A stretch of 43,967 bases of DNA, filler included, from an uncultured virus (IMG/VR IMGVR_UViG_2061766007_001416) (lineage: Duplodnaviria > Heunggongvirae > Uroviricota > Caudoviricetes). It is 3 parts of one record of this genome, joined end to end, with 100 filler letters (N's around TTAATTAATTAA, not from the genome) between each part and the next. Parts side by side here need not be neighbours in the genome. Positions count along the whole stretch, not along the records: positions 1 to 19,131 come from IMGVR_UViG_2061766007_001416; 2 more parts are not named here. One strand, given 5' to 3'. Of the stretch, positions 54 to 13,245 are shown one piece after another; position 1 is the stretch's first letter; every line of letters begins with the position of its first letter. The notes under the pieces were generated by a model, which had not been told where the DNA came from, made no database searches, and was given only the letters and a program-made list of their open reading frames with translations. The position numbers were made by a program, and so were the translations under genes.

Positions 54-1409
54 GTGAGATTTTTGAACTATTCGATGTTATACGGCGAGATTATTAAAAT
101 TTTAAATAAAGACAGTCCTCACCAGTACGGCTATAACAGCGAAATGGCGGCTAATATTGAGCTGTGGAGCAGAATGTACGAGAATAAATCTCCGTGGCTA
201 AGTAAGACTGTTGCAAGTGCAAATTTGCCCGTACAGATTGCTTATGAAACGGCTAAACTTGTCACTCTCGAATTAAAAAGCGAAATTAAAGGCGGTGCAG
301 NNNNNNNNNNNTATACCAGCGTGACGTCCTTACAAAGCTTCGTAAATTTACAGAATACGGGCTTGCAAAGGGCAGCTTGATTATTAAACCGATAGCCGAT
401 GAAAACGGCATAAGAACGCAGTTTATTCAGGCGGACTGCTTTTACCCGATAAGCTTTGACGGGAGCGGAAATCTCATAAAATGCGTACTTGCCGATCAGA
501 TAAGAAAAGGCAGGAGCATTTACACTCTGCTTGAAATACACACATTGAACGGTATGACATACACCATTGAGAACAGACTTTTCAAAAGTGAAAACGACAG
601 TCTTCTTGGCAGCGAAACAAGCNNNNNNNNNNNNNNNNNNNNNNNNNNNNNGCAGACAGCGTCTTTTGCAAATGTCAAAAAAATACCTCTCGGATTTTTC
701 CGCTGTCCTATGGCGAATCAGATCGACAGTAAATCTCCGCTTGGAGTTTCGGTGTATTCAAGGGCGGTCGATCTGATAAAAGAAGCAGACAAGCGTTACA
801 GTAACATTTGCTGGGAATACGAAGCGACAGAAACGGCGGTACACGTTGCGGAAAGTCTGCTTGAATACGACAAGGAAAATGACCGCTTTAATTATCCGGG
901 CGGCAAAGACAGGCTCTATAGAAAAGTGCAGNNNNNNNNNNNNNNNNNNNTTGATAGATGTTTTCTCACCTCAGATACGTTCGACAGAGCTGTTTGACGG
1001 TTGGAATAATCAGCTTAGAATGATTGAGTTTGCGTGTTCGCTTGCATATTCTACGCTGTCAAATCCTCAGAATGTGGATAAAACGGCAGAGGAAATAAAG
1101 TCTTCAAAACAGCGTTCCTACACGTTTATAGCCGATACTCAAAGCAGCTTGCAGACAGCTCTTGAAGAGTGGGTGGACGCTGCATGGTTTTGGTCGCAGA
1201 TATATAGTTTAGTGCCGAACAGCAGTTACAAAACAGATTTTGACTGGGGTGACAGCATTATTTCGGATCCGGACGAAAAGCGTAAGCAGGATATTCAAGA
1301 CTTAAATCTCGGTATTATGCGTCCGGAGGAGTACCGTGCAAAATGGTACAACGAGGATATCAACACAGCATTACAGAATCTTCCGCAGTCTGCCGAGGTG
1401 ATTGAATAA
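54..1409 (+). CDS. Phage portal protein, A118/Gp6-like (gapped; ORF pieces 54-380, 377-997, 846-1409)
   Basis: Motifs SPLGVSVYSRA, IEFACSLAYSTLS, KTAEEIKSSKQRSY, FDWGDSII, EYRAKWY; frame breaks coincide with N gaps. Confidence 0.85.
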
Positions 1410-1892
1410 TGTTTAAGCCGGGCGAAATTGAGGGTATACCTCTTGGCATTGAGCGTCAGTTTTCAGATCTTGAAACACGTATCATGGAAGATATCATCAG
1501 ACGGCTTAAAGAAAACGGCGGCGATATCACAAGGGCGGCTGATTGGCAGATACACAGGCTTCATGAGCTTGGAATGTCGAAAAAAGAGATCAAAGATTAC
1601 ATCCGTGACAGCTTAGAAATGAGCGNNNNNNNNNNTTATCCGTGACAGCTTAGAAATGAGCGACAGACAGATTGACGAAATTTATGCAAAGACTATCCGA
1701 GCCGGATATTACCGTGACGGCAGCATATACAAGCTAAAGGGTAAAGATCAGATACCCTACAAAGAGAATACAGGCTTACAGCAGCTTATAGGAGCTGTCA
1801 CTTTACAGACAAACGGCGAGCTTAAAAATATAACTCGGACAATGGGATTTGCTAAACGTGAAAACGGACAATTACGATTTACGCAGCTTTCC
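1409..1892 (+). CDS. Minor capsid protein 2 (MuF-related, Phage_min_cap2-like), N-terminal fragments
   Basis: LETRIMEDIIRRL...ADWQI motif immediately after the portal; ELKNITRTMGF. Confidence 0.8.
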
Positions 1893-1903
1893 NNNNNNNN
1901 NNC

Positions 1904-2086
1904 CAGGTTCAAATAAACACAATTCTAAGCCTTGCAAATGTTCTTGATGATGAAACAATAGTGCAGTCAATCTGCGATATTCTCGACATAAGCTATGAGG
2001 ATATCAAAGGGAAAATTACAATTGATGAAGAAAAAAACACTGCACAAGCGATTACACAGCTAAAGAGGACGGATGTAAATGAATGA
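1904..2086 (+). CDS. C-terminal fragment of a second (SPP1-like) portal protein
   Basis: Hand translation QVQINTILSLANVLDDETIVQSICDILDISYEDIKGK...VNE*, overlapping the start of the gp7/MuF gene. Confidence 0.6.
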   Translation, partial: QVQINTILSLANVLDDETIVQSICDILDISYEDIKGKITIDEEKNTAQAITQLKRTDVNE

Positions 2087-3020
2087 CCGTCAAAGAGAAG
2101 TACAGCTGTCCATGCTTCAAGATGAGCAGGAATATATAAGAATTCTGAAAGAAACATTCAGGCAGGCTTCACAGGATTGTGAAAATAAAATTCGTGAATT
2201 ATCCGCAAGGACGGATTTGGAGAATATTCAGTCAATTGTTTATCAGCAGCAGTATCAAATGACGATAAAAAAGCAGATAGATGAAGCTTTGATGAACTTG
2301 CAAAACAATGAATATTCAAGCATGAATGACTATCTTGAAAACTGTTATACAAACAGTTTTACCGGAACACTGTACGACCTGCATGGTCAGGGAGTGCCTG
2401 TTTTATTTCCGATTGACCAAAGCCAAGTCGCAAAGGCGGTGCAGCTTGACTCGGCGATATCCGTGGGGCTTTACACAAGGCTTGGCGAGGATGTTTTAAA
2501 GCTTAAAGACAATATCCGCTCACAAGTTTCAAGAGGTATTGCAAGCGGTTCAACATGGAATCAGACAGCGACAGAAATAGCAATGGGTATGAAAAGTCCG
2601 TTTAACAAGGCTTACAACAACGCTGTCAGGATTGCAAGGACAGAGGGACACAGGATACAAAATCAGGCTCAAACTGATACGCTGAAAAAAGCTAAATCCA
2701 AAGGAGCAGATGTTGTAAAACAATGGGATTCAACGCTCGATGACGTTACAAGAGATACGCACAAACAGCTTGACGGACAAATCAGAGAAATAGACCAGCC
2801 TTTCGAAGTGAATGGAAAGACAGCAATGCAGCCGGGGGGATTTGGTGACCCTGCGGAGGATTGNNNNNNNNNNACACAGGATACAAAATCAGGCTCAGAC
2901 AGATACTTTGAACAAAGCCAAATCAAAAGGAGCGGACGTTGTAAAGCAGTGGGATTCAACGCTTGATGACGTTACAAGAGATACGCACAAACAGCTTGAC
3001 GGACAGATCAGGGAGATAGA
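2079..3020 (+). CDS. Phage head morphogenesis protein MuF/SPP1 gp7 family (partial, with a duplicated allele fragment at 2874-3020)
   Basis: RIARTEGHR, KQWDSTLDDVTRDTHKQLDGQ, PGGFGDPAED. Confidence 0.9.
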
Positions 3021-3030
3021 NNNNNNNNNN

Positions 3031-3365
3031 CGGGGCAATGCTTGACATAACATCGGGTGCTTTTGATTACAATACGGTGCTTAAAAGGACCGTCCGGGAG
3101 CTTACAAACAGCGGACTGCGTACAGTAGACTATGCAAGCGGAAAGAGCCTGAGAGTTGAATCTGCGGCACGAATGGCGGTAATGACCGGAGTATCTCAGG
3201 TAACGGCTAAGATAAACGAGCAGAACGCAAAGGAGCTTGACACGGACTATTTTGAGGTTACGTGTCACGGCGGTGCAAGACCAACTCATCAAGAATGGCA
3301 GGGTAAAGTGTACAGCAAAAAGGAACTTGAAACTGTCTGCGGTTTGGGCGCTGCGGACGGCTTAT
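3031..3365 (+). CDS. Minor capsid protein 2, central fragment
   Basis: VDYASG, AARMAVMTGVSQ, HGGARPTHQEWQGKVY. Confidence 0.85.
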
Positions 3366-3384
3366 NNNNNNNNNNNNNNNNNNT

Positions 3385-4308
3385 GGAATTTCTGAAAGAG
3401 CATACACTGATGACGAACTTGAAAAGCTGAAAATTGAAGAGAATACTCCGAGAGAATTCGGTGGTAAGCAGTATACGAAATATCAGGCTACGCAAAGACA
3501 GAGAGCCTTAGAACGGACAATGCGAGCCCAGCGGCAGGAGATAAGCTTACTGCAAGCAGGCGGTGCAAGTGAAGAAGATTTAATGATTGCAAGAGGCAGA
3601 TATCGGGTTACTTCGGCTGAATATACAAGGTTCTCAAAAGCGATGGATTTACCCCAGCAAAGAGAGAGAGTAATGGTTGACGGACTGGGGACTATTGGAA
3701 ATGGGAAATATAAAATTCCTGAAAATGGTGTTGCAAATTCGGGGAATAGTGGTATAATAAAAGAGAAGAGCAATAAGGCTATAACCCCCATTACAGATAA
3801 AGCTATCGAACGAGTTCCAAATGTTAGCATATCAGGATATACTGTGGAACAGTCTTCTATTATTCAGAAACAGCATAAAGAGCTTTTAGATTATTCTCGT
3901 AAAAATAATAATAATAAAGAGGTCGCTTTTGTGATTAATGGAAGCCTTGAAAGTGATAGCAGAAAAATATTCAAAGGTTCAGACGATCAACTGAGTTTTG
4001 GTTCTGCTTTGAGAGGAAAAGATCTTATAGTTATGCATAATCACCCACGAAACAGTAGCTTTTCCTTAACCGATATTGTGTTTTTTGGGAAAAGTGACCA
4101 AATAAAAACATTAACTATTGTAAAGAACAACGGCAATGTGGAGTATATTACAAAAGGTTCAAATTTTGATATGTACAAATTTAAGATTGAATATGACAGA
4201 CTTTATAAAAAGACTGTAAAAAATGGTACAGATGCCGAGATAGATAAATTTATTCAGAAGTTATTAAGCAACAATAAGTCAGGAGTGATTTGGAGTGAAA
4301 AAAAATAA
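3385..4308 (+). CDS. Minor capsid protein 2, C-terminal part with JAB/MPN-like toxin extension
   Basis: Frame is open from the gap (YQATQRQRALERTMR); after NSGII comes a domain with KEVAF...HNHPRNSSFSLTD (E...HxH...SxxD). Confidence 0.8.
   Translation, partial: GISERAYTDDELEKLKIEENTPREFGGKQYTKYQATQRQRALERTMRAQRQEISLLQAGGASEEDLMIARGRYRVTSAEYTRFSKAMDLPQQRERVMVDGLGTIGNGKYKIPENGVANSGNSGIIKEKSNKAITPITDKAIERVPNVSISGYTVEQSSIIQKQHKELLDYSRKNNNNKEVAFVINGSLESDSRKIFKGSDDQLSFGSALRGKDLIVMHNHPRNSSFSLTDIVFFGKSDQIKTLTIVKNNGNVEYITKGSNFDMYKFKIEYDRLYKKTVKNGTDAEIDKFIQKLLSNNKSGVIWSEKK
3731..3758 (+). promoter_or_regulatory. Intragenic sigma-A-like promoter at the carrier/toxin junction
   Basis: TTGCAA-16 nt-TATAAT with extended -10 (TGG TATAAT). 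Confidence 0.6.
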
Positions 4309-4438
4309 CGAATTAAATTTTTTAGATGGTTCTTTAGAAGAACAAAAAGAAGCTGTCGAAAAATTTTTAAGCACTCTTACGGACGAAGAACATGAAAGAG
4401 CTATGTCAGACGAGTTTGCATATCTTGACGAAGAATAA
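4295..4438 (+). CDS. 47-aa acidic protein, candidate immunity protein (not in the ORF track)
   Basis: GTG start with AGGAGTGA RBS at 4281, overlapping the toxin stop; MKKNNELNFLDGSLEEQKEAVEKFLSTLTDEEHERAMSDEFAYLDEE*. Confidence 0.65.
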   Translation: MKKNNELNFLDGSLEEQKEAVEKFLSTLTDEEHERAMSDEFAYLDEE

Positions 4439-4464
4439 ACTAACCGCCCTCATCNNNNNNNNNN

Positions 4465-4886
4465 TTTCTAAGAATGGTGGTATAATTGATACAAATAGAG
4501 GTATGTATAGAAATAGTTCAAATAAAGGAGCTTTTTCACATCTTCCTGAAAAAATGAGTAAAAAACATATTCGTGAAATTGCGAAAGAATATGGTATTAG
4601 TTTAGCAGGTATGTCTATCAACATAGATAAAAACGAAGAACTTTTGAATTTGTTTTTTGCAGGCAGAGCTGACCCCGAATCTGTAGGCGGTATAACATTT
4701 TTCCCGAACGCTTTTAAAAGCAAAGAAGAATTATTAAGAACATTATATCACGAGAGATTACACGTTTTACAATTCAAAGAGTATGGTGTGGATTTTGTAC
4801 AAAACAATAGAAGATACTTTGAAGATATAACTGAACAAGCAGAAGAGCAGTTCATTGAGAACTTGAAGAAAGAAGGGTTATTATGA
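4465..4886 (+). CDS. MuF C-terminal toxin tip, HExxH metallopeptidase-like (5' partial)
   Basis: Starts at KNGGII junction motif after a gap; LLRTLYHERLHVLQ and downstream FE. Confidence 0.7.
4478..4486 (+). promoter_or_regulatory. Extended -10 box at the junction (-35 lost in gap)
   Basis: TGGTATAAT; 19 nt identical to 7799-7817. Confidence 0.5.
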
Positions 4887-5065
4887 GTGATTGGACGAAA
4901 AACCTTATATCTTATATGAATAATGGCAGCGTTGGGATATGCCCTTATTGTTCAAGTGAAAAAGTTGAAGTTGAAAATATAGGAAAAATACGACAATCCC
5001 TTATTTTTAAATGCTTGAATTGTAATAAATCTGAGCATTTTGACGGACTGAGAATAGAAAAATGA
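4883..5065 (+). CDS. 60-aa zinc-ribbon protein, candidate immunity protein
   Basis: ATGA overlap with the toxin stop; CPYC...CLNC. Confidence 0.7.
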   Translation: MSDWTKNLISYMNNGSVGICPYCSSEKVEVENIGKIRQSLIFKCLNCNKSEHFDGLRIEK

Positions 5066-5071
5066 TATTTT

Positions 5072-5102
5072 TACCGCCCTCACACGAGAGCGGTATTCTT
5101 TT
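5072..5102 (+). terminator. ACCGC hairpin, intrinsic terminator-like
   Basis: TACCGC-C-CTC-acac-GAG-A-GCGGTA followed by TTCTTTT. Confidence 0.7.
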
Positions 5103-5122
5103 ACAATTTTGGAGGTGATTAA

Positions 5123-5887
5123 TTGATAGATTTAAAACAAGGCGATTGCCTTGAATTGATGAAAAATATTCCTGATAATTCAATTGATATGATTTTATGT
5201 GATTTGCCGTATGGAATTACGCAAAATAAGTGGGATACCGTCATACCGTTTGATGCGTTATGGGAAAGATATAGCCGCATAATAAAAGATAACGGTGCGA
5301 TAGTGTTGTTCGGGCAAGGATTGTTCTCCTCAGAATTGGCTTGCTCTAATAAGCAGATGTTTCGTTACCGGCTTGTGTGGGAAAAGACAAAGGCTGGAGG
5401 GTTTCTCAATGCAAGACGAATGCCACTACAAGCACACGAAGACATAATTGTGTTTTATAAAAGACTCCCAATATATAATCCTCAAATGAAAGAGGGGAAG
5501 CCGTATATTAATAAGTTTGTTACTAACGGCGACGGAAGGTGTTATGGGGAATTTGATAGAGTGGGAAGGGTAAACGAAAACAAAGGAACAAGATTTCCAA
5601 GAAGTGTAATTAAATTTTCAAATGACAATCATAACTCTCTGCACCCGACTCAAAAGCCCGTTGACTTATTGGAATATCTGATAAAAACATACACAAACGA
5701 AGGTGATTTGGTTCTTGACAATTGCATGGGGAGTGGCTCAACAGGTGTTGCTTGCGTAAATACAAATCGTAATTTCATAGGTTTTGAACTTAACGAACAT
5801 TATTTTGAGATTGCAAAAAAGAGAATAGAAGAAGCACAAACCGCCCTGAGCAGTCAAGGCGGTATTTCTATACCCGAAAAGAAGTGA
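5123..5887 (+). CDS. Orphan N6-adenine/N4-cytosine DNA methyltransferase (beta class)
   Basis: GDCLELM, DLPY catalytic motif, HPTQKPVDLLEYLIKTYT, LDNCMGSGSTG; GGAGGTG RBS. Confidence 0.92.
   Translation: MIDLKQGDCLELMKNIPDNSIDMILCDLPYGITQNKWDTVIPFDALWERYSRIIKDNGAIVLFGQGLFSSELACSNKQMFRYRLVWEKTKAGGFLNARRMPLQAHEDIIVFYKRLPIYNPQMKEGKPYINKFVTNGDGRCYGEFDRVGRVNENKGTRFPRSVIKFSNDNHNSLHPTQKPVDLLEYLIKTYTNEGDLVLDNCMGSGSTGVACVNTNRNFIGFELNEHYFEIAKKRIEEAQTALSSQGGISIPEKK
5840..5879 (+). repeat. ACCGCC hairpin repeat inside the MTase 3' end
   Basis: ACCGCC-C-TGA-gcag-TCA-A-GGCGGT ATTTCTATACCCGAAA. Confidence 0.75.
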
Positions 5888-5893
5888 TATCTA

Positions 5894-6081
5894 TTGATTT
5901 GCCCTTACAATCTCCACTGTGAAACACAAATTCAGCATTGGCAGCAAAACCCCGATGATGACCAAGTTCTCACGGATGGAGCAACAGTAACAAGAACGTT
6001 TTATAAGTACATGGAATGCAAGCAAAACGAATGCGGAGCGTTCTATAACGGAATATGTCACTATTCAAATAAAGACGATTA
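5894..6081 (+). CDS. Small Cys-rich conserved phage protein (further alleles at 6891-7022 and 9019-9173)
   Basis: MICPY...MECKQNECGAFYNGICHY; three near-identical copies. Confidence 0.7.
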
Positions 6082-6091
6082 NNNNNNNNNN

Positions 6092-6884
6092 TAAAGAAAA
6101 ACTTGAAGATTATGACGGATTTGTAGAAAAATTCAAACCTAAGAAAACAACAGACGATTGTTATACTCCTGAAATTGTCTACAATGCTATTGCTGATTGG
6201 GTGGCGAATGAGTACAATTTAAATAAATCCGATTTTTGCCGTCCGTTTTATCCGGGTGGCGATTATGAACATTTTGAATATGACAACAAAATTGTTGTAG
6301 ATAATCCTCCGTTTTCCATACTTGCTCAAATAATCAAGCTTTATACTGGTAAAAAAATTAAATTCTTTTTGTTTGCTCCTACTTTAACACTTTGCCGATA
6401 CGGTGATTATTGCACAGTGCTCCCTGTTGGTGCTGATATAACGTATGAGAATCGTGCTGTAGTCAATACTTCGTTTGCAACCAATCTTGAACCAAATGAA
6501 ATAAGAGCGAGAACAACACCAACTTTATACAAAGTTGTAGATGAAGCTAACAAAATAAACAAACAGAAAGATAAAAAGAGTTTACCGAAGTATAGCTATC
6601 CAATGGAGCTTGTAACAACTGCGGCAATTTATCCTTTTGCGAAATACGGGATTGATTTTGTTATTCCTCGTTCTGAAAGTGTCAGAGTATCAGCTTTAGA
6701 TGTACAACGTCCTCATAAAAAAGTCGTGTTTGGTTGTGGTTGGCTTGTATCAGAACGAGTAAAAGCCGAACGAGAGAAAGCCGAACGAGAGAAAGCGGTA
6801 CGCTGGGAACTCAGCGAAAGAGAAAAAGAAATTAAAACCGCCCTGAGCAATCAAGGCGGTATTTCTATACCCGAAAAGAAGTGA
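6092..6884 (+). CDS. Phage adenine-methyltransferase-like protein (5' partial)
   Basis: Frame is open from the gap: KKTTDDCYTPEIVY...RPFYPGGDY...VVDNPPFS; ends TALSNQGGISIPEKK. Confidence 0.65.
6837..6876 (+). repeat. ACCGCC hairpin repeat
   Basis: ACCGCC-C-TGA-gcaa-TCA-A-GGCGGT ATTTCTATACCCGAAA. Confidence 0.75.
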
Positions 6885-7032
6885 TATCTATTGATTTGCC
6901 CCTACAATCTCCGCAGTGAAACACAAATTCAGCATTGGCAGCAGAACCCCGATGATAATCAAACTCTGACGGACGGAGCAACAGTCACAAGAACGTTTTA
7001 TAAGTACATGGAATGCAAGCAGNNNNNNNNNN

Positions 7033-7236
7033 AAAGCTAAACAGGGTTTATGCAATTGACGAAAAAGGTAACGGTGGAGCTAATCACAGATATGAGATTG
7101 ATTGCCCGCTCGGAGAAACAAACGGTTTTCCGCAGAGTGATGTTACAATCATTCAATTTCAAAACGGTGCAAGAAAGCTTTCTGAAAATGTTCACGGTGT
7201 ACTCGATACAGATTTACTTGAAATCGTTCGTGACCG
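7033..7236 (+). CDS. tad1: Thoeris anti-defence 1 (Tad1) family sponge protein, internal fragment
   Basis: KLNRVYAIDEKGNGGANHRYEI...IQFQNGARK...HGVLDTDLLEIVRD matches the Tad1 pattern (KLN, GGAxHxY, FQxGARK, HGVxDxDLLEIVRDR) as recalled. Confidence 0.85.
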
Positions 7237-7246
7237 NNNNNNNNNN

Positions 7247-7672
7247 TGCAACGGAAATTGCAATGGGAATGAGAAGTCCGTTTAACAAAGCGTATAATAA
7301 CGCTGTCAGGATTGCAAGAACCGAGGGGCACAGGATACAAAATCAGGCTCAGGCAGATACTTTAAACAAGGCTAAATCCAAAGGAGCAGACGTTGTAAAG
7401 CAGTGGGACTCAACACTTGATGATGTTACAAGAGATACGCACAAACAGCTTGACGGACAGATCAGGGAGATAGACGAACCGTTTGAAGTGAACGGCAAAA
7501 CAGCAATGCAGCCGGGGGGATTTGGTGACCCTGCGGAGGATTGTAATTGTAGGTGCTGTATGCTGCAAAGAGCAAAGTGGGCATTAGATGAATCGGAGCT
7601 GAGGGAACTGCAAGAAAGAGCAGAATACTTCGGACTTGATAAAGCAGAAAGTTTTGAGGATTTTAAAAATAA
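7247..7672 (+). CDS. MuF/gp7 second allele, fragment
   Basis: Near-identical to 2568-2863 and continues PAEDCNCRC. Confidence 0.9.
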
Positions 7673-7682
7673 NNNNNNNNNN

Positions 7683-8262
7683 TGCAAAGTGGGCATTAGA
7701 TGAATCGGAGCTTAAAGAGCTTGAAAGCAGGGCGGAATACTTCGGACTGGATAAGGCGGAAAGTTTTGAGGATTTTAAAAATAAATACTTGAATGCTGCT
7801 AAGAATGGTGGTATAATAAATTCAGGCGGTAAAATTACAGATACTAATTTTATGCATATAGAAAAATTTGAACGACAAGCAGAGCAATTTTATAATGCTA
7901 GAGTTCGCAATGGCGATAATGATGTTAAATCAATTTCAGAAAACACCGGATTTAGCTATGATGATGTTTTAGCAATAAAAAATCATGTAATGGTTGATAA
8001 GCATTTATTTAGTGATGGCTCAGTAAGAAAATTTGACCCCAATATTGACCAAGCACTTGCATGGCAAAGATTAATGGAAAATAATTTTAAAAATTCTGAT
8101 ATTCTTCTGCTTAATCACGAACTTCGAGAATTGAGATATATGCAGAGTACTGGGTGTGATTATGAAACCGCTCATAGATATGCAACACAAAAGTATGATT
8201 GGCAATCTGTTATAGATTCGATTATTGACAAAGATAATATTAATCCCGATTTACTTAAATAA
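7683..8262 (+). CDS. MuF C-terminal part with toxin-like tip (HExxE...AH)
   Basis: Overlaps the MuF allele (AKWALDESEL, YFGLDKAESFEDFK), then KNGGII, then IKNH, FDP, AWQRL, LLNHELRE, YETAH. Confidence 0.75.
7789..7817 (+). promoter_or_regulatory. Intragenic sigma-A-like promoter at the carrier/toxin junction
   Basis: TTGAAT-17 nt-TATAAT with extended -10 TG. Confidence 0.7.
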
Positions 8263-8277
8263 GTGGAGGTGGGAACT

Positions 8278-8523
8278 ATGATGACATATATTCGTTTTTT
8301 AAAACTTGAAAATGGCTTTATAACTTATGAATATGGCAGAAATAAAGATGAAATGATAGGCACTGTAACAGTGGAAATAGCGAATAAGGAAAATTGCAAC
8401 TTTGAATTTTATAAAACATCTAAATTTCAGAGTTTCAATACATCTACTTCTCACACTATTTCTTTGATATATCGCTTCATAAAATCTAATGATTATCCAA
8501 AAGAATATGTTTATGCTTGCTAA
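8278..8523 (+). CDS. Small protein, candidate immunity protein
   Basis: GGAGGTG RBS at 8265, ATG at 8278; directly after the toxin tip and before the hairpin. Confidence 0.7.
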   Translation: MMTYIRFLKLENGFITYEYGRNKDEMIGTVTVEIANKENCNFEFYKTSKFQSFNTSTSHTISLIYRFIKSNDYPKEYVYAC

Positions 8524-8532
8524 TAAAAACTA

Positions 8533-8570
8533 ACCGCCCTCACCCGAGAGCGGTATTCTTTTACCCGAAA
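8533..8570 (+). terminator. ACCGC hairpin, intrinsic terminator-like
   Basis: ACCGC-C-CTC-accc-GAG-A-GCGGT ATTCTTTTACCCGAAA. Confidence 0.7.
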
Positions 8571-9187
8571 GTAGAAAGGAATNNNNNNNNNNNNNNNNNN
8601 NNNNNNNNNNNNNNNNNNNNNNNNNNNNNNNNNNNNNNNNNNNNNNNNNNNNNNNNNNNNNNNNNNNNNNNNNNNNNNNNNNNNNNNNNNNNNNNNNNNN
8701 NNNNNNNNNNNNNNNNNNNNNNNNNNNNNNNNNNNNNNNNNNNNNNNNNNNNNNNNNNNNNNNNNNNNNNNNNNNNNNNNNNNNNNNNNNNNNNNNNNNN
8801 NNNNNNNNNNNNNNNNNNNNNNNNNNNNNNNNNNNNNNNNNNNNNNNNNNNNNNNNNNNNNNNNNNNNNNNNNNNNNNNNNNNNNNNNNNNNNNNNNNNN
8901 NNNNNNNNNNNNNNNNNNNNNNNNNNNNNNNNNNNNNNNNNNNNNNNNNNNNNNNNNNNNNNNNNNNNNNNNNNNNNNNNNNNNNNNNNNNNNNNNNNNN
9001 NNNNNNNNNNNNNNNNNGTCCAGCATTGGCAGCAGAACCCTGATGATAATCAAACTCTGACGGACGGAGCAACAATCACAAGAACGTTTTATAAATACAT
9101 GGAATGCAAGCAGGAAGACTGCGGAGCGTTCTACAACGGCAGATGTTACTATAATAAACCCGACAACGATTAAAAAGAGGTGAGAAA

Positions 9188-10214: not shown

Positions 10215-10871
10215 ATGGATTTTCTCAAAGAAATTTTAGGCGATGAACTTTTTAAGCAAGTTTCCGAAAAGCTCAAAGCCTATAACGAAAACCCCGACAA
10301 CAAAGACAAGCAAGTCAATCTTGCAAATCTTACTGACGGCGGCTATATCCCCAAACAGCAGTTTGACAGCGTAACAGCCGAAAATCAAACGAACACTCAG
10401 AAGCTAACCGAAGCAAACGCTTTAATTGAACAGCTGAAAAAGTCCGCAAAAGGCGATGAAGCTCTTCAAACAAAAATCAGCGAGTATCAGATAAAGGTCG
10501 CAGAACTTGAAACAGAGCTTGTTAAGGCAAAAATCAATGCTGCCGTTAAGGTTGGCTTAATGTCTGCAAATGCCGTTGACGTTGATTATTTAACGTACAA
10601 GTTAGGCGAAAAGGGTGAGAAATTGGAACTGGACGAACAGGGCAATATAAAGGGCTGGAATGATAAAATATCCGCTCTTAAAACGCAGTTTCCCACAATG
10701 TTCACGGGACCCTCGGACGGCGCTTTTGACGGCTACAGACCTATCGAAAAAGGCACTAACCCCGATACGCAGGCGTTAACTCGTGCGGATATCCTCAAAA
10801 AGCCTTATTCCGAACGTGTTAAGCTTTTTAACGAAAACCCCGAAAATTACAGTCAAATCATGAAAGGATGA
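10215..10871 (+). CDS. Phage scaffolding protein (GP20-like)
   Basis: GGYIPK, coiled coil, NAVDVDYL; upstream of the major capsid gene. Confidence 0.85.
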   Translation: MDFLKEILGDELFKQVSEKLKAYNENPDNKDKQVNLANLTDGGYIPKQQFDSVTAENQTNTQKLTEANALIEQLKKSAKGDEALQTKISEYQIKVAELETELVKAKINAAVKVGLMSANAVDVDYLTYKLGEKGEKLELDEQGNIKGWNDKISALKTQFPTMFTGPSDGAFDGYRPIEKGTNPDTQALTRADILKKPYSERVKLFNENPENYSQIMKG

Positions 10872-10878
10872 TTAAATT

Positions 10879-11581
10879 ATGCCAGCAACAAAACTCGGTG
10901 ATATCATTAACCCACAGGTCATGGGCGATATGATTAACGCAAAAATCGAAGCACTTTGCAAGATTACTCCTTACGCAAAAGTTGATACTTCTCTTGTCGG
11001 TGTTCCCGGTGATACAAAGACCGTTCCCTGCTGGAATTATATCGGTGACGCAGAGGACTTTGACCCCGAAAACGACAACGGTGATGAGATCGAAACAACA
11101 AAGCTCACGGCGTCTTCAACCACATTTACAATCAAATGTGCAGGCAAATCCGTAAGTATTTTGCAGACAGCCATCAACAGCGGCTTGGGCGATCCTATAG
11201 GTCAGACTGAAACTCAGATTGCAAAGTCAATTTCCGGCAAAGTCGATAATGATCTTATTAATTCCGCTTATGCCTGTACAAACGTTGTTGACGGTTCAGC
11301 TGCCGCTGTCGGTTATAACGGCATTGTAACGGCAGTTTGTCAGTTTGAGGATGAAGAGGACAATATTGACAAGGTTATGTTTATTCATCCAAATCAGGAG
11401 GCTGCACTTTTGCAGGACAGCAGTTTCCTTTCTGCCGATAAGTTTACCGCAGGTGTTGCCGTTAACGGTTCAATCGGTAAAATTGCAGGCTGTTGGATAA
11501 AGAAGTCGAGAAAAGTCAAGCTTATCAAATACACCAAGGACAACACCAACGGCACAATCACCATTGTAGCAGACTCGACAA
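10879..11581 (+). CDS. Major capsid protein allele 1 (partial)
   Basis: TKLGDIINPQVMGDMI, GVPGDT, WNYIGDAED, KVDND. Confidence 0.9.
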
Positions 11582-11592
11582 NNNNNNNNNNA

Positions 11593-12213
11593 TTCAAGCA
11601 AATCTCCGAAAAGCTCAAAGCCTACAACGAAAACCCCGACAACAAGAACAAGCAAATAAGTCTTGCCAACATCACAGACGGCGGCTATATCCCCAAACAG
11701 CAGTTTGACAGCCTAACAGCCGAAAACAAGACGAACGCTCAGAAGCTAACCGAAGCAAACACGCTTATCGAGCAGCTTAAAAAATCCGCAAAGGGTGACG
11801 AAGCTCTTCAAACAAAGATAGGCGAGTATCAGACAAAGGTTGCAGAGCTTGAAACAGAGCTTGCACAGGCTAAAATCAACGCTGCTGTCAAAGTCGGCTT
11901 GATGTCAGCCAATGCCGTTGACGTTGATTATTTAACGTACAAGTTAGGCGAAAAGGGCGAGAAATTGGAGCTTGACGAACAGGGCAATATAAAGGGCTGG
12001 AACGATAAAATTTCCGCTCTTAAAACGCAGTTCCCCACAATGTTTACAGGTGCTGCAAACGGCTCTTTTGACGGATACCGTCCGATTGAAAAGGGAACTG
12101 CTCCCGAAACACAAACCTTAACACGCAAGGATATTCTCAAAAAGCCTTATTCCGAAAGAGTAAAGCTTTTTAACGAGAATCCCGATAACTACAATCAAAT
12201 AATGAAAGGATGA
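11593..12213 (+). CDS. Scaffolding protein allele 2 (5' partial)
   Basis: Highly similar to 10215-10871. Confidence 0.85.
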   Translation, partial: FKQISEKLKAYNENPDNKNKQISLANITDGGYIPKQQFDSLTAENKTNAQKLTEANTLIEQLKKSAKGDEALQTKIGEYQTKVAELETELAQAKINAAVKVGLMSANAVDVDYLTYKLGEKGEKLELDEQGNIKGWNDKISALKTQFPTMFTGAANGSFDGYRPIEKGTAPETQTLTRKDILKKPYSERVKLFNENPDNYNQIMKG

Positions 12214-12219
12214 TAATTT

Positions 12220-13245
12220 ATGCCAAACACAGCAACAAAAATAGGTGATATCATAAACCCTCAGGTAATGGGTGATATGATAAACGCAAAAATTGAAGCA
12301 CTCTGCAAGCTTACTCCTTACGCAAAGGTCGATACTACGCTTGTAGGTGTCCCCGGCAATACGGTAACTGTCCCCTGCTGGAACTACATCGGTGACGCTG
12401 AGGATTTTGATCCCGAAAATGCAAACGGTGACGAGATCGAAACTACAAAGCTCACAGCGTCTTCAACTACTTTTACGATAAAATGTGCCGGAAAGTCTGT
12501 CGGTATTTTGCAGACTGCTATTAACAGCGGTATGGGCGATCCTGTCGGTCAGACTGAAACACAGATAGCAAAATCCATTGCCGGCAAGGTCGATAACGAT
12601 GTTCTTATTGCTGCCGATTCAAGTACAAATGTTGTAGACGGCTCAACGGCTGCGATCGGTTATGCTCCAATAGTAACGGCTGTTTGTCAGTTTGAGGACG
12701 AAGAGGACAACATCGACAAGGTTATGTTTATTCACCCGAAGCAGGAAGCAACACTTCTTAAAGACAGCGATTTTCTCTCTGCCGATAAGTTTACGGCAGG
12801 TGTCGCAGTCAACGGCTCTATCGGTAAGATTGCCGGCTGCTGGGTGAAGAAGTCCAAAAAAATCAAGCTTATCAAATACGAGAAAGACAACACAAACGGC
12901 ACTATAACCATTGTGGCGGACAGTACAACCGAAACAACAACGAATAAGCACCTTGGCACAATACAGCCCAACTGTGAGGAAACGCTTGATGTCGGCGATA
13001 AGGTAAAAGCGGTCACAAACAATTATTACAGAGATATCATAATCAAAATGGAGCCCGATTCAAGCGAAACGGAGTTTACCGAGGATGAGCTTTCGGCTGT
13101 TACTATCTTCCTCAAAAAGGATACTCAGGTAGATCACGAATGGTTCCCGAAAAAGCAGCGTCATGACATTACGGCGACTAAATATTACGGCGTCGCTCTT
13201 ACAAACGCTGCAAAGGTTGTTGTAGCAAAATTCAAGGCTTCTTAA
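12220..13245 (+). CDS. Major capsid protein (HK97-fold, N4-gp56-like family)
   Basis: Complete 341 aa; INPQVMGDMI, YIGDAED, GSIGKIAGC. Confidence 0.9.
   Translation: MPNTATKIGDIINPQVMGDMINAKIEALCKLTPYAKVDTTLVGVPGNTVTVPCWNYIGDAEDFDPENANGDEIETTKLTASSTTFTIKCAGKSVGILQTAINSGMGDPVGQTETQIAKSIAGKVDNDVLIAADSSTNVVDGSTAAIGYAPIVTAVCQFEDEEDNIDKVMFIHPKQEATLLKDSDFLSADKFTAGVAVNGSIGKIAGCWVKKSKKIKLIKYEKDNTNGTITIVADSTTETTTNKHLGTIQPNCEETLDVGDKVKAVTNNYYRDIIIKMEPDSSETEFTEDELSAVTIFLKKDTQVDHEWFPKKQRHDITATKYYGVALTNAAKVVVAKFKAS

Follow-up and report, generated by a model that had tools for sequence, protein, structure and literature searches.

Introduction

Promoters located inside a toxin gene, which transcribe the C-terminal toxin domain together with its immunity gene, have been demonstrated for Rhs proteins of Salmonella (PMC7043789) and of enterohaemorrhagic Escherichia coli (EHEC), where both rhsF and rhsG carry them (PMC7618764). 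In Salmonella Typhimurium, the rhs promoters P2A and P2B are reported to lie 89 nt upstream of the PxxxxDPxGL motif and to give a toxic product that starts from a CTG codon, and the authors left open whether other toxin families do likewise (PMC7043789). The MuF toxins, as outlined by Jamet et al. (PMC5576092), consist of a shared MuF1 or MuF2 N-terminal domain, a variable C-terminal toxin and a small downstream open reading frame (ORF), in a Firmicutes prophage setting. They are described as abundant in gut and rumen prophages (PMC5576092, PMC11699363), and their packaging and delivery have been proposed by Jamet et al. (PMC5576092) and Zhang et al. (PMC3482391). The subject of this report is a candidate promoter at the junction between the MuF carrier and its exchangeable toxin tip, found in a 43,967-base stretch of DNA from an uncultured virus of the Caudoviricetes (IMGVR_UViG_2061766007_001416; the whole stretch is referred to as the window) and in related loci.

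The MuF junction resembles the Rhs system in having a predicted promoter within the carrier coding sequence, just upstream of the demarcation between carrier and toxin. It differs in its setting, the Rhs carriers belonging to type VI secretion (T6SS) in Enterobacteria and the MuF carriers to Clostridia phages, and the MuF1 and MuF2 carriers of the window are not Rhs/YD-repeat proteins with a PxxxxDPxGL motif. The Rhs promoters precede the peptide motif at a distance, whereas the −10 box of the MuF element is itself the demarcation motif and provides the last conserved bases. Rhs transcripts give a toxic product, while most MuF tips have no start codon. The Rhs promoters were tested experimentally in single strains, whereas the MuF junction is known from comparison across about 200 loci.

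The main text of Jamet et al. 2017 (PMC5576092) does not describe a junction element, and the words motif, promoter, junction, recombination and linker are absent from it; two later MuF papers do not describe one either, mentioning only vector promoters. The 300,000 characters searched of Zhang et al. 2012 (PMC3482391) contain neither 'internal promoter' nor 'own promoter', and a literature search for an internal promoter of MuF toxins, which did not cover subscription journals and supplements, returned unrelated papers only. An earlier note on this DNA knew of no description of the arrangement. Within these sources that holds for MuF toxins, but the Rhs promoters are a precedent in kind (PMC7043789, PMC7618764).

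Results

A promoter-like motif at the carrier/tip junctions

The sequence TGGTATAAT occurs at 3750–3758, 4478–4486 and 7809–7817, each time on the boundary between a MuF carrier and its tip, and nowhere else on either strand of the 43,967 bases. The chance expectation is 0.28 copies, and none of 100 shuffles reached three. Plain TATAAT is found 33 times against 29.6 expected, and so is not enriched. All three copies are read as xxT GGT ATA ATx, within ORFs that continue from a MuF-type carrier. The earlier note had placed the start of all three variable tips here, at a peptide (S/G)GII, and the −35 boxes it had proposed for junctions 1 and 3 are both present (Table 1). Junction promoter 1 encodes V-A-N-S-G-N-S-G-I-I and junction promoter 3 encodes Y-L-N-A-A-K-N-G-G-I-I; their predicted transcription starts are near 3765 and 7824, respectively. 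In a consensus scan, each scores 10/12 with TG before the −10 box, and no site between 12000 and 31999 joins such a score with TG. Tips 2 and 3 have the 19 nt CTAAGAATGGTGGTATAAT in common and diverge at the very next base, directly after the −10 box, and Pfam places the motif on two carrier families, Phage_Mu_F (PF04233; MuF1) and Phage_min_cap2 (PF06152; MuF2), both as previously noted.

The same arrangement is found in other assemblies. TTGCAA-16-TGGTATAAT of junction 1 recurs in loci L172 and L175, and L125 keeps tip 3 along with both hexamers of junction promoter 3, with one spacer base differing. Among genome contigs, the closest carriers to 7247–7788 come from two metagenome-assembled genomes of uncultured Ruminococcus (91% amino-acid identity), one of which carries tip 3 and TTGAAT-17-TGGTATAAT as in the window. 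The Acutalibacter phage Fontainebleau (ON453893; locus L204, 2920–2960) has TTCACA-18-TGGTACAAT at an A-S-G-T-I-K junction. Fontainebleau is a cultured temperate phage of a GC-rich host, the motif lying at the junction of its 633-aa MuF2 protein, and it provides a tractable cultured system for tests.

Codons at the junction follow a DNA consensus

A set of 203 MuF loci was fetched with the two carrier ends as queries, comprising the best 80 of 264 MuF1 relatives and 44 MuF2 loci from viral contigs, and 79 MuF1 loci from species-representative genomes. The peptide G-I-(I/M) is present at the junction in 18 of the 80 MuF1 and 13 of the 44 MuF2 viral loci, and every one of these is encoded by GGTATAAT. 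Junction contexts were then picked by this peptide alone, with duplicates removed over all three sets (n = 30), and compared with a background of G-I-(I/M) in any ORF of at least 100 aa in the same loci (n = 138). The glycine codon is GGT in 29/30 junction contexts but in 22/138 of the background, and the codon of the first isoleucine is ATA in 29/30 and 41/138, respectively. The base before the motif is T in 26/30 (background 38/138), the residue that it completes being S, N, Y, G or D. Both codons together, GGTATA, are found in 29/30 contexts against 11/138. A TTG lies 16–17 nt upstream in 29/30, the background figure of 2/138 being counted only jointly with GGTATA, and 26/30 have at least five of six matches to TTGACA, which was counted for the junction contexts only. 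The single exception among the 30 (L012) is located 40 residues into the tip. Alignment of the junctions, which had been suggested as a check, thus yields the predicted codon fixation and TTG box; homologues that keep GII with freely varying synonymous codons and no −35 box had been named as a refutation, and the homologues show the opposite.

Where residues vary, they do so at bases that a promoter leaves free. The glycine is replaceable by Asp or Val (GAT, GTT), which corresponds to the free n of TGnTATAAT, and the first isoleucine by Lys or Thr (AAA, ACA), which corresponds to the weakly conserved third base of the −10 box; the motif closes with ATA, ATT, ATC or ATG (Ile or Met). The −35 box is kept in two reading frames, as xTT GAA/GAC Axx (V/L/I-E/D-K/N) with a spacer of 16 and as TTG ACA/ACT (L-T) with a spacer of 17. 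A spacer of 18 is seen only with TTTACA or TTCACA and never with TTGA, which would then be read as xxT TGA and give a stop. The alternative phases of the motif itself would contain a stop (xTA TAA) or need a Cys or Trp codon (TGn TAT AAT), and G-I-I can for this reason be understood as the footprint of TGnTATAAT. Where the −10 box lies nearer the carrier, the Leu of K-Y-L-K is encoded by TTG and doubles as the −35 box, while the same Leu is CTG, CTA or CTC in the G-K-S-G-I-I type and in short MuFs with K-Y-L-K/N (L061, L070). Across the loci compared, variation of the motif obeys the logic of DNA and not that of a peptide.

A subclass of MuF1 carriers that end in the peptide K-A-K-T-Y-N-E-F-K has TTGTCA-17-TATAAT in the other phase (TAT AAT, encoding Y-N), at the point where its tips diverge. 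This site is present in L078 and in seven genome loci (L131, L132, L135, L150, L152, L153 and L154). L136 has the same peptide without the site, and selection at the DNA level is ambiguous for this subclass.

Position of the sites and the point of exchange

A strong site was defined by at least 4/6 matches in the −35 box, at least 5/6 in the −10 box including A2 and T6, a spacer of 16–18 and a total of at least 11/13 when TG is counted, and synonymous-codon shuffles of the same MuF ORFs provided the expected numbers. The 107 unique MuF ORFs of viral contigs contain 46 strong sites, of which 38 lie in the interval −1 to +155 nt relative to where the carrier match ends, two in carrier bodies and six deeper in the tips. 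Over 200 shuffles of this set, the mean number of junction sites was 5.97 (standard deviation (sd) 2.1, maximum 13). After addition of genome contigs (147 unique complete long MuF ORFs, 100 shuffles), 60 sites were observed in the junction interval (31 kb) against a shuffle mean of 8.4 (sd 2.6, maximum 15). The carrier body (125 kb) had three sites against 2.1, the mid-tip seven against 1.7, and the last 150 nt ten against 1.7 (maximum 5). Overall, 77/147 ORFs carry a site after the carrier, compared with 11.5 in the shuffles. Short MuFs have no junction site (0/11 and 0/9, or 0/20 in total). Given a TATAAT, the combination of TTG at 16–17 nt and TG is found in 20/35 junction contexts and in 5/284 cases elsewhere in the loci. 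Strong sites within the last 150 nt, just before the small ORF, were seen in L054, L028, L079, L065, L168, L188, L197, L180 and L137.

Homology between loci ends at the same place. Pairs with 84–94% identity in the 51 nt up to and including the −10 box have 25–47% in the next 40 nt, and the mean over all pairs for those 40 nt is 32%, so that identity falls to the random level straight after the −10 box. The abruptness of this drop indicates that the motif is also an exchange point.

RNA contigs over tip 3

Bovine gut metatranscriptomes containing tip 3 were identified, and the runs were compared with 7247–8582. Three metatranscriptome runs from two studies have whole contigs over 7836–8506, 7836–8502 and 7831–8454 (together spanning 7831–8506), and a loose 5′ end is seen in none of them. 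The 584 nt of upstream carrier (7247–7830) are uncovered in runs X2 and X3, and run X1 has only a 98-nt carrier patch, at a depth of 3.4 versus 10.8; the uncovered stretches (7345–7830 in X1, 7247–7830 in X2 and X3) are by themselves no evidence of silence. The contigs fit a transcript of about 740 nt running from about 7824 to the hairpin, with its ends lost at low depth, and their pattern is a weak hint of transcription from the junction promoter. Branching of the de Bruijn graph was considered as the cause of the contig starts and found unlikely, since the unitig of tip 3 should then reach about 7797 and not 7831–7836.

A 692-nt contig of X1 links the shared hairpin to a 645-letter loose end, whose last 30 letters agree, on comparison by eye, with the 3′ end of small ORF 1, reading towards the hairpin. 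If the rest is colinear with the window, this contig would begin near 3792. Run X15, for which the kind of library is not on record, has one contig that spans the junction (7768–7960) and another that shares sequence with tip 3 only as far as 7826, from which the unitig limit of about 7797 given above follows. The summed contig depth in X15 is 76 at 7742–7786 and 150 at 8507–8551, compared with about 7 inside tip 3, and one contig joins 7794 to 8531. The X15 sample seems to contain many alternative cassettes, or none, between the same flanks.

Tips, small ORFs and hairpins

The features of the window are listed in Table 1. GC content drops at the junction, from 0.46–0.50 in the carriers to 0.28–0.34 in tip and small ORF. 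Searches of tips 1 and 3 against Pfam gave nothing credible even at E up to 1, and tip 3 as query found no relative among viral contigs. Part of tip 1 (about 4030–4075, peptide MHNHPRNSSFSLTD) has an H-x-H...S-x-x-D pattern that we take to be like the JAB/RadC metalloprotease signature; it lacks Pfam support and serves as a lead only. Among 28 homologue tips behind the motif, Ntox50 scored above its Pfam cut-off in three, on both carrier families, and DUF6883 in one; three more have weak matches (DUF6883, Tox-MPTase4 and SprT-like) and 21 have no Pfam family. With the three tips of the window included, 24 of the 31 tips examined are without a Pfam family. The Ntox50 tips are those of L062 and L067 (MuF1) and L082 (MuF2), in which the domain starts about 21 residues past the −10 box and the spacer sequences differ.

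A small ORF (<150 aa) lies directly downstream of the tip in 27 of 28 representative homologues, and in 24 of 27 representatives a hairpin with a T run is found within 30 nt of the stop codon of the first small ORF. The outer stem of this hairpin is conserved, as AAGCAC...GTGCTT or, as in the window, AACCGC...GCGGTT. The hairpins of the window fold at −12.5 to −14 kcal/mol, and the region of that at 5072–5101 is 96.9% identical to 8533–8564. Further cargo genes lie behind cassette 2, and their flanks (5818–6024 and 6817–7021, hairpin plus downstream sequence) are 90.8% identical behind two different genes. The ORFs at 5123–5887 and 6093–6884 look like alternative inserts at a further swap site bounded by the hairpin.

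Table 1. Features of the MuF region of the window, grouped by type.
Feature	Position	Strand	Details
Junction promoter 1 (candidate)	3731–3758	+	−35 TTGCAA 3731–3736, spacer 16, TG 3750–3751, −10 TATAAT 3753–3758
Junction motif 2	4478–4486	+	TGGTATAAT; upstream sequence lost to N run 4455–4464
Junction promoter 3 (candidate)	7789–7817	+	−35 TTGAAT 7789–7794, spacer 17, TG 7809–7810, −10 TATAAT 7812–7817
MuF2 (Phage_min_cap2) carrier gene, N-terminal pieces	1409–1892	+	PF06152 profile positions 2–68 and 70–137; N run 1626–1635 inside
MuF1 (Phage_Mu_F) allele pieces	1903–3020 (2079–2863, 2874–3020)	+	PF04233; scaffolded inside the MuF2 gene
MuF2 carrier, C-terminal part and linker	3032–3730	+	PF06152 positions 150–270 and 285–364; N run 3366–3383
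MuF1 carrier, C-terminal pieces of two alleles	7247–7788	+	PF04233; N run 7673–7682
Tip 1	3754–4308	+	In frame with MuF2; AT-rich; no Pfam family
Small ORF 1 (47 aa), candidate immunity gene	4295–4438	+	Followed by start of conserved hairpin 4441–4454, cut by N run
Tip 2	4482–4886	+	HExxH motif; Tox-MPTase4 16.4 bits (cut-off 25)
Small ORF 2 (60 aa), candidate immunity gene	4883–5065	+	ORF scan
Conserved hairpin and U-rich tail after cassette 2	5072–5101	+	−13.0 kcal/mol, z = −5.6
N6/N4 DNA methylase gene	5123–5887	+	PF01555; same type of hairpin after it at 5840–5863
Second cargo ORF	6093–6884	+	No Pfam family; hairpin 6837–6860 and repeat of the 5818–6024 flank follow
Tip 3	7813–8262	+	No Pfam family
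Small ORF 3, candidate immunity gene	8263–8523	+	86 aa from GTG; ATG 8278 comes after GGAGGTGG
Conserved hairpin and U-rich tail, right-hand anchor of cassette	8533–8564	+	−12.5 kcal/mol, z = −4.2

Structure of the window

The window is made up of 61 pieces separated by 60 runs of N, and tandem neighbours among the pieces are 80–97% alike (e.g., 10251–11574 and 11593–12921). Similarly, 2568–2863 is 87.5% identical to 7248–7543, 2875–3020 is 93.8% identical to 7329–7474, and 7572–7672 is 86% identical to 7684–7784. Phage_Mu_F is matched at 2079–2861 (53.4 bits) and 7248–7670 (62.2 bits), and Phage_min_cap2 at 1409–1892, 3032–3364 (129.6 bits) and 3385–3633. The MuF1 allele lying within the MuF2 gene is an assembly chimera. 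Fragments between 54 and 1406 have no Pfam family; the portal gene is found directly upstream in L204 and L205, which are annotated relatives.

As a rule there is one muf gene per phage, with 614 genes given for 611 genomes (PMC5576092). Together with the N runs, the tandem allelic pieces and the MuF1 allele inside MuF2, this identifies the three tips as alternative alleles of related phages that were placed end to end by scaffolding, not as a tandem array. Between positions 1 and 13000, MuF1 is represented by at least three alleles and MuF2 by one gene, and there are scaffold and capsid genes in duplicate. Because this region strings together allelic pieces, its gene order is not readable as that of a single phage genome. 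The chimeric scaffold leaves the finding unweakened; it means that the assembly graph branches at the motif.

Discussion

The aligned loci show the motif, where it lies, that it is conserved as DNA, and that homology breaks off behind it. The explanation that we favour is a sigma-70/sigma-A promoter with an extended −10 element, which would lie in frame within the short linker between the MuF carrier and the exchangeable toxin tip. Its consensus would be TTGAmA, 16–17 nt, TGnTAwAAT, on both Phage_Mu_F and Phage_min_cap2 carriers. The predicted transcript would have its 5′ end about 7 nt past the −10 box, where the variable tip has its first codons, would cover both tip and immunity gene, and would terminate at the conserved hairpin that follows the cassette. 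As the last conserved element, the promoter would also be the site of cassette exchange. The fixed codons, the −35 box kept in two frames and the drop in identity are consistent with the earlier proposal that GII is the by-product of a sigma-A promoter doubling as exchange point. Promoter activity, transcript ends and the immunity function are what we infer from the sequences, and we consider it probable that the reading is correct as a whole, that is, a sigma-A promoter at the junction, transcription of tip and immunity gene, and supply of immunity.

The main product would be the immunity protein, since a start codon with a ribosome-binding site is lacking near the predicted transcription start in most tips but is present in the small ORFs. 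The median of the best ribosome-binding energy is −5.0 kcal/mol for tips and −7.6 kcal/mol for small ORFs, and many of the best tip starts lie more than 80 nt downstream. L099 is the only one of the 31 tips in which a strong ribosome-binding site is followed by an ATG, 13 nt past the predicted start. The rarity of good starts in the tips and the enrichment of strong sites in the last 150 nt of MuF toxin ORFs that have no junction site favour immunity as the purpose of the promoter. Both a lysogen and a newly infected cell would receive immunity without need of the late operon, whatever cassette is present. A toxin that is produced late and travels in the virion would meet the next cell, or a lysogen, while the late genes are silent, so that only a late-independent promoter could supply the antidote.

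Several observations weigh against this interpretation. The threshold of 11/13 was our own choice, and a strong site downstream of the carrier is missing from 70 of the 147 long MuF genes, showing that the site is not universal. The number of junction sites that remains in the shuffles indicates that the linker peptides alone favour promoter-like DNA. The sites represent 31 representatives below 80% identity, and as the sequences are related by descent, the counts are not independent events. In the window, the piece with tip 2 begins 13 bases 5′ of TGGTATAAT, straight after an N run, and its −35 region is lost. The RNA contigs begin 14–19 nt past the −10 box and not 7 nt, and, being assembled contigs with a depth of 3.5–10.8, they show neither strand nor true ends. 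An untranslated tip of 350–700 nt before the immunity gene would be an unusual leader. Lastly, the short MuF gene of L061 also has the conserved hairpin behind it. For that reason the idea that the hairpin is the cassette's own terminator was dropped, and the hairpin is regarded as a backbone element and right-hand anchor that is not brought by the cassette.

The same promoter could serve a different purpose, namely production of the free toxin tip along with its immunity protein, as an intracellular toxin–antitoxin, addiction or abortive-infection module similar to Rhs. The internal promoters of Salmonella rhs, with their toxic product, and those of EHEC rhsF and rhsG are precedents (PMC7043789, PMC7618764), and the L099 tip has a suitable start near the predicted transcription start. 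However, L099 is alone among the 31 tips in having, within 60 codons, an in-frame start (ATG, GTG or TTG) preceded by a ribosome-binding site as strong as those of the better immunity genes, non-canonical starts not being covered by this count. The in-frame ATGs of the window at 4503 and 7852 are present, as the earlier note had pointed out, and both lack such a ribosome-binding site, which it had also remarked. Without a consistent start codon, its suggestion that the free tip acts as a toxin–antitoxin module loses ground, and we consider this purpose unlikely. A further alternative is that the conserved block serves first of all as an anchor for the swapping of cassettes by recombination (a short patch of homology or a site for a recombinase), and that the resemblance to a promoter is secondary or goes unused. 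This would account for homology that stops exactly at the −10 box, with an equally conserved hairpin as the right flank, and for the X15 contigs, with their deep flanks, shallow tip 3 and direct joint between the two sides. A homology patch, on the other hand, is expected to be contiguous, whereas here the hexamers and TG are fixed and the 16–17 nt spacer is free (0.1–0.8 bit). For the −35 box, two frames and two spacings have been preserved. Both the agreement with TTGACA-17-TGnTATAAT and the variants tolerated are as expected for binding of RNA polymerase, and no recombinase was seen adjoining the locus. While the roles of anchor and promoter are compatible with each other, an anchor with an incidental promoter is decidedly improbable.

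Polymorphic toxins usually have peptide demarcation motifs, according to Zhang et al. (PMC3482391), and G-I-I could be a selected peptide of this type, a pre-toxin linker or processing site like VENN or PxxxxDPxGL, resembling a promoter because of AT-rich codons. The junction sites that persist when codons of the same proteins are shuffled are in line with such a view. It is difficult to reconcile with codons that are fixed at the junction and not in the background, with constant bases under varying residues (G/D/V, I/K/T and I/M, preceded by S, N, Y, G or D), with a −35 box at the right distance in nearly every context, and with an observed number of sites above that of each of the 100 shuffles; we therefore think a peptide signal very unlikely. 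Finally, the pattern could be due to chance or be an artefact of a fragmented, chimeric scaffold, given the many N runs and tandem allelic pieces of the window and a tip 2 piece that starts so close to the motif. The same motif is found at the same place in other assemblies, including viral loci of both carrier families, genome contigs and two GenBank phage records, and this recurrence already refutes the idea, which we give virtually no credence. A ribosomal slippery site in GGAAAAAGT was also considered and rejected from the sequence, which has no X XXY YYZ pattern.

Phage morons (Hendrix and co-workers) are cassettes of promoter, gene and terminator in late operons. The MuF cassette is similar in being AT-rich, extra and absent from relatives (the short-MuF relatives are without it), in its place among head genes, and in having a predicted sigma-70-type promoter before it and a hairpin behind. 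It differs in that a moron lies between genes, whereas the MuF tip is fused in frame to its carrier and the promoter would also be coding sequence, and in that the hairpin belongs to the MuF backbone, as its presence in L061 indicates. Nuclease colicins have a constitutive promoter for the immunity gene inside the toxin gene, so that immunity is expressed while the toxin promoter is off. The colicin promoter is near the 3′ end of the toxin gene, whereas the majority of MuF sites are at the 5′ border of the toxin domain. The ten strong sites in the last 150 nt give a minority of MuF genes a colicin-like placement, which may be a replacement for the junction promoter. VENN of CdiA and PxxxxDPxGL of Rhs, like the MuF junction, mark the point of change from carrier to variable toxin and of cassette recombination. 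These two are conserved as protein, while the MuF junction is conserved as DNA, with a peptide that is degenerate in the manner of a promoter consensus.

A more speculative suggestion, which we regard as rather doubtful, is that the junction promoter solves the timing problem of virion-carried toxins and that toxin and immunity protein together act as an entry-addiction or anti-defence device. An incoming genome, or a lysogen, would make the matching immunity protein at once from a constitutive, host-type promoter in the constant linker, while the toxin would be left without its antidote in a cell where incoming DNA is destroyed or silenced (e.g., by restriction). In a wider sense, what demarcates carrier from toxin in polymorphic toxins may in many cases be regulatory DNA instead of a peptide signal.

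Comparison of the loci supports an extension of the Rhs-type internal-promoter principle to a phage toxin family, in which the −10 box itself would be the demarcation motif and exchange point. A principle with experimental support only for Rhs in two enterobacteria would then apply to phage-borne toxins of Firmicutes. If the favoured reading is true, the apparent G-I-I junction motif would be explained as regulatory DNA, and there would be a simple reason why cassettes recombine exactly at the junction. Annotators would gain a signature in the DNA by which to recognise where unknown toxin domains begin, and lysogens would be predicted to be permanently immune to the toxin of their own phage.

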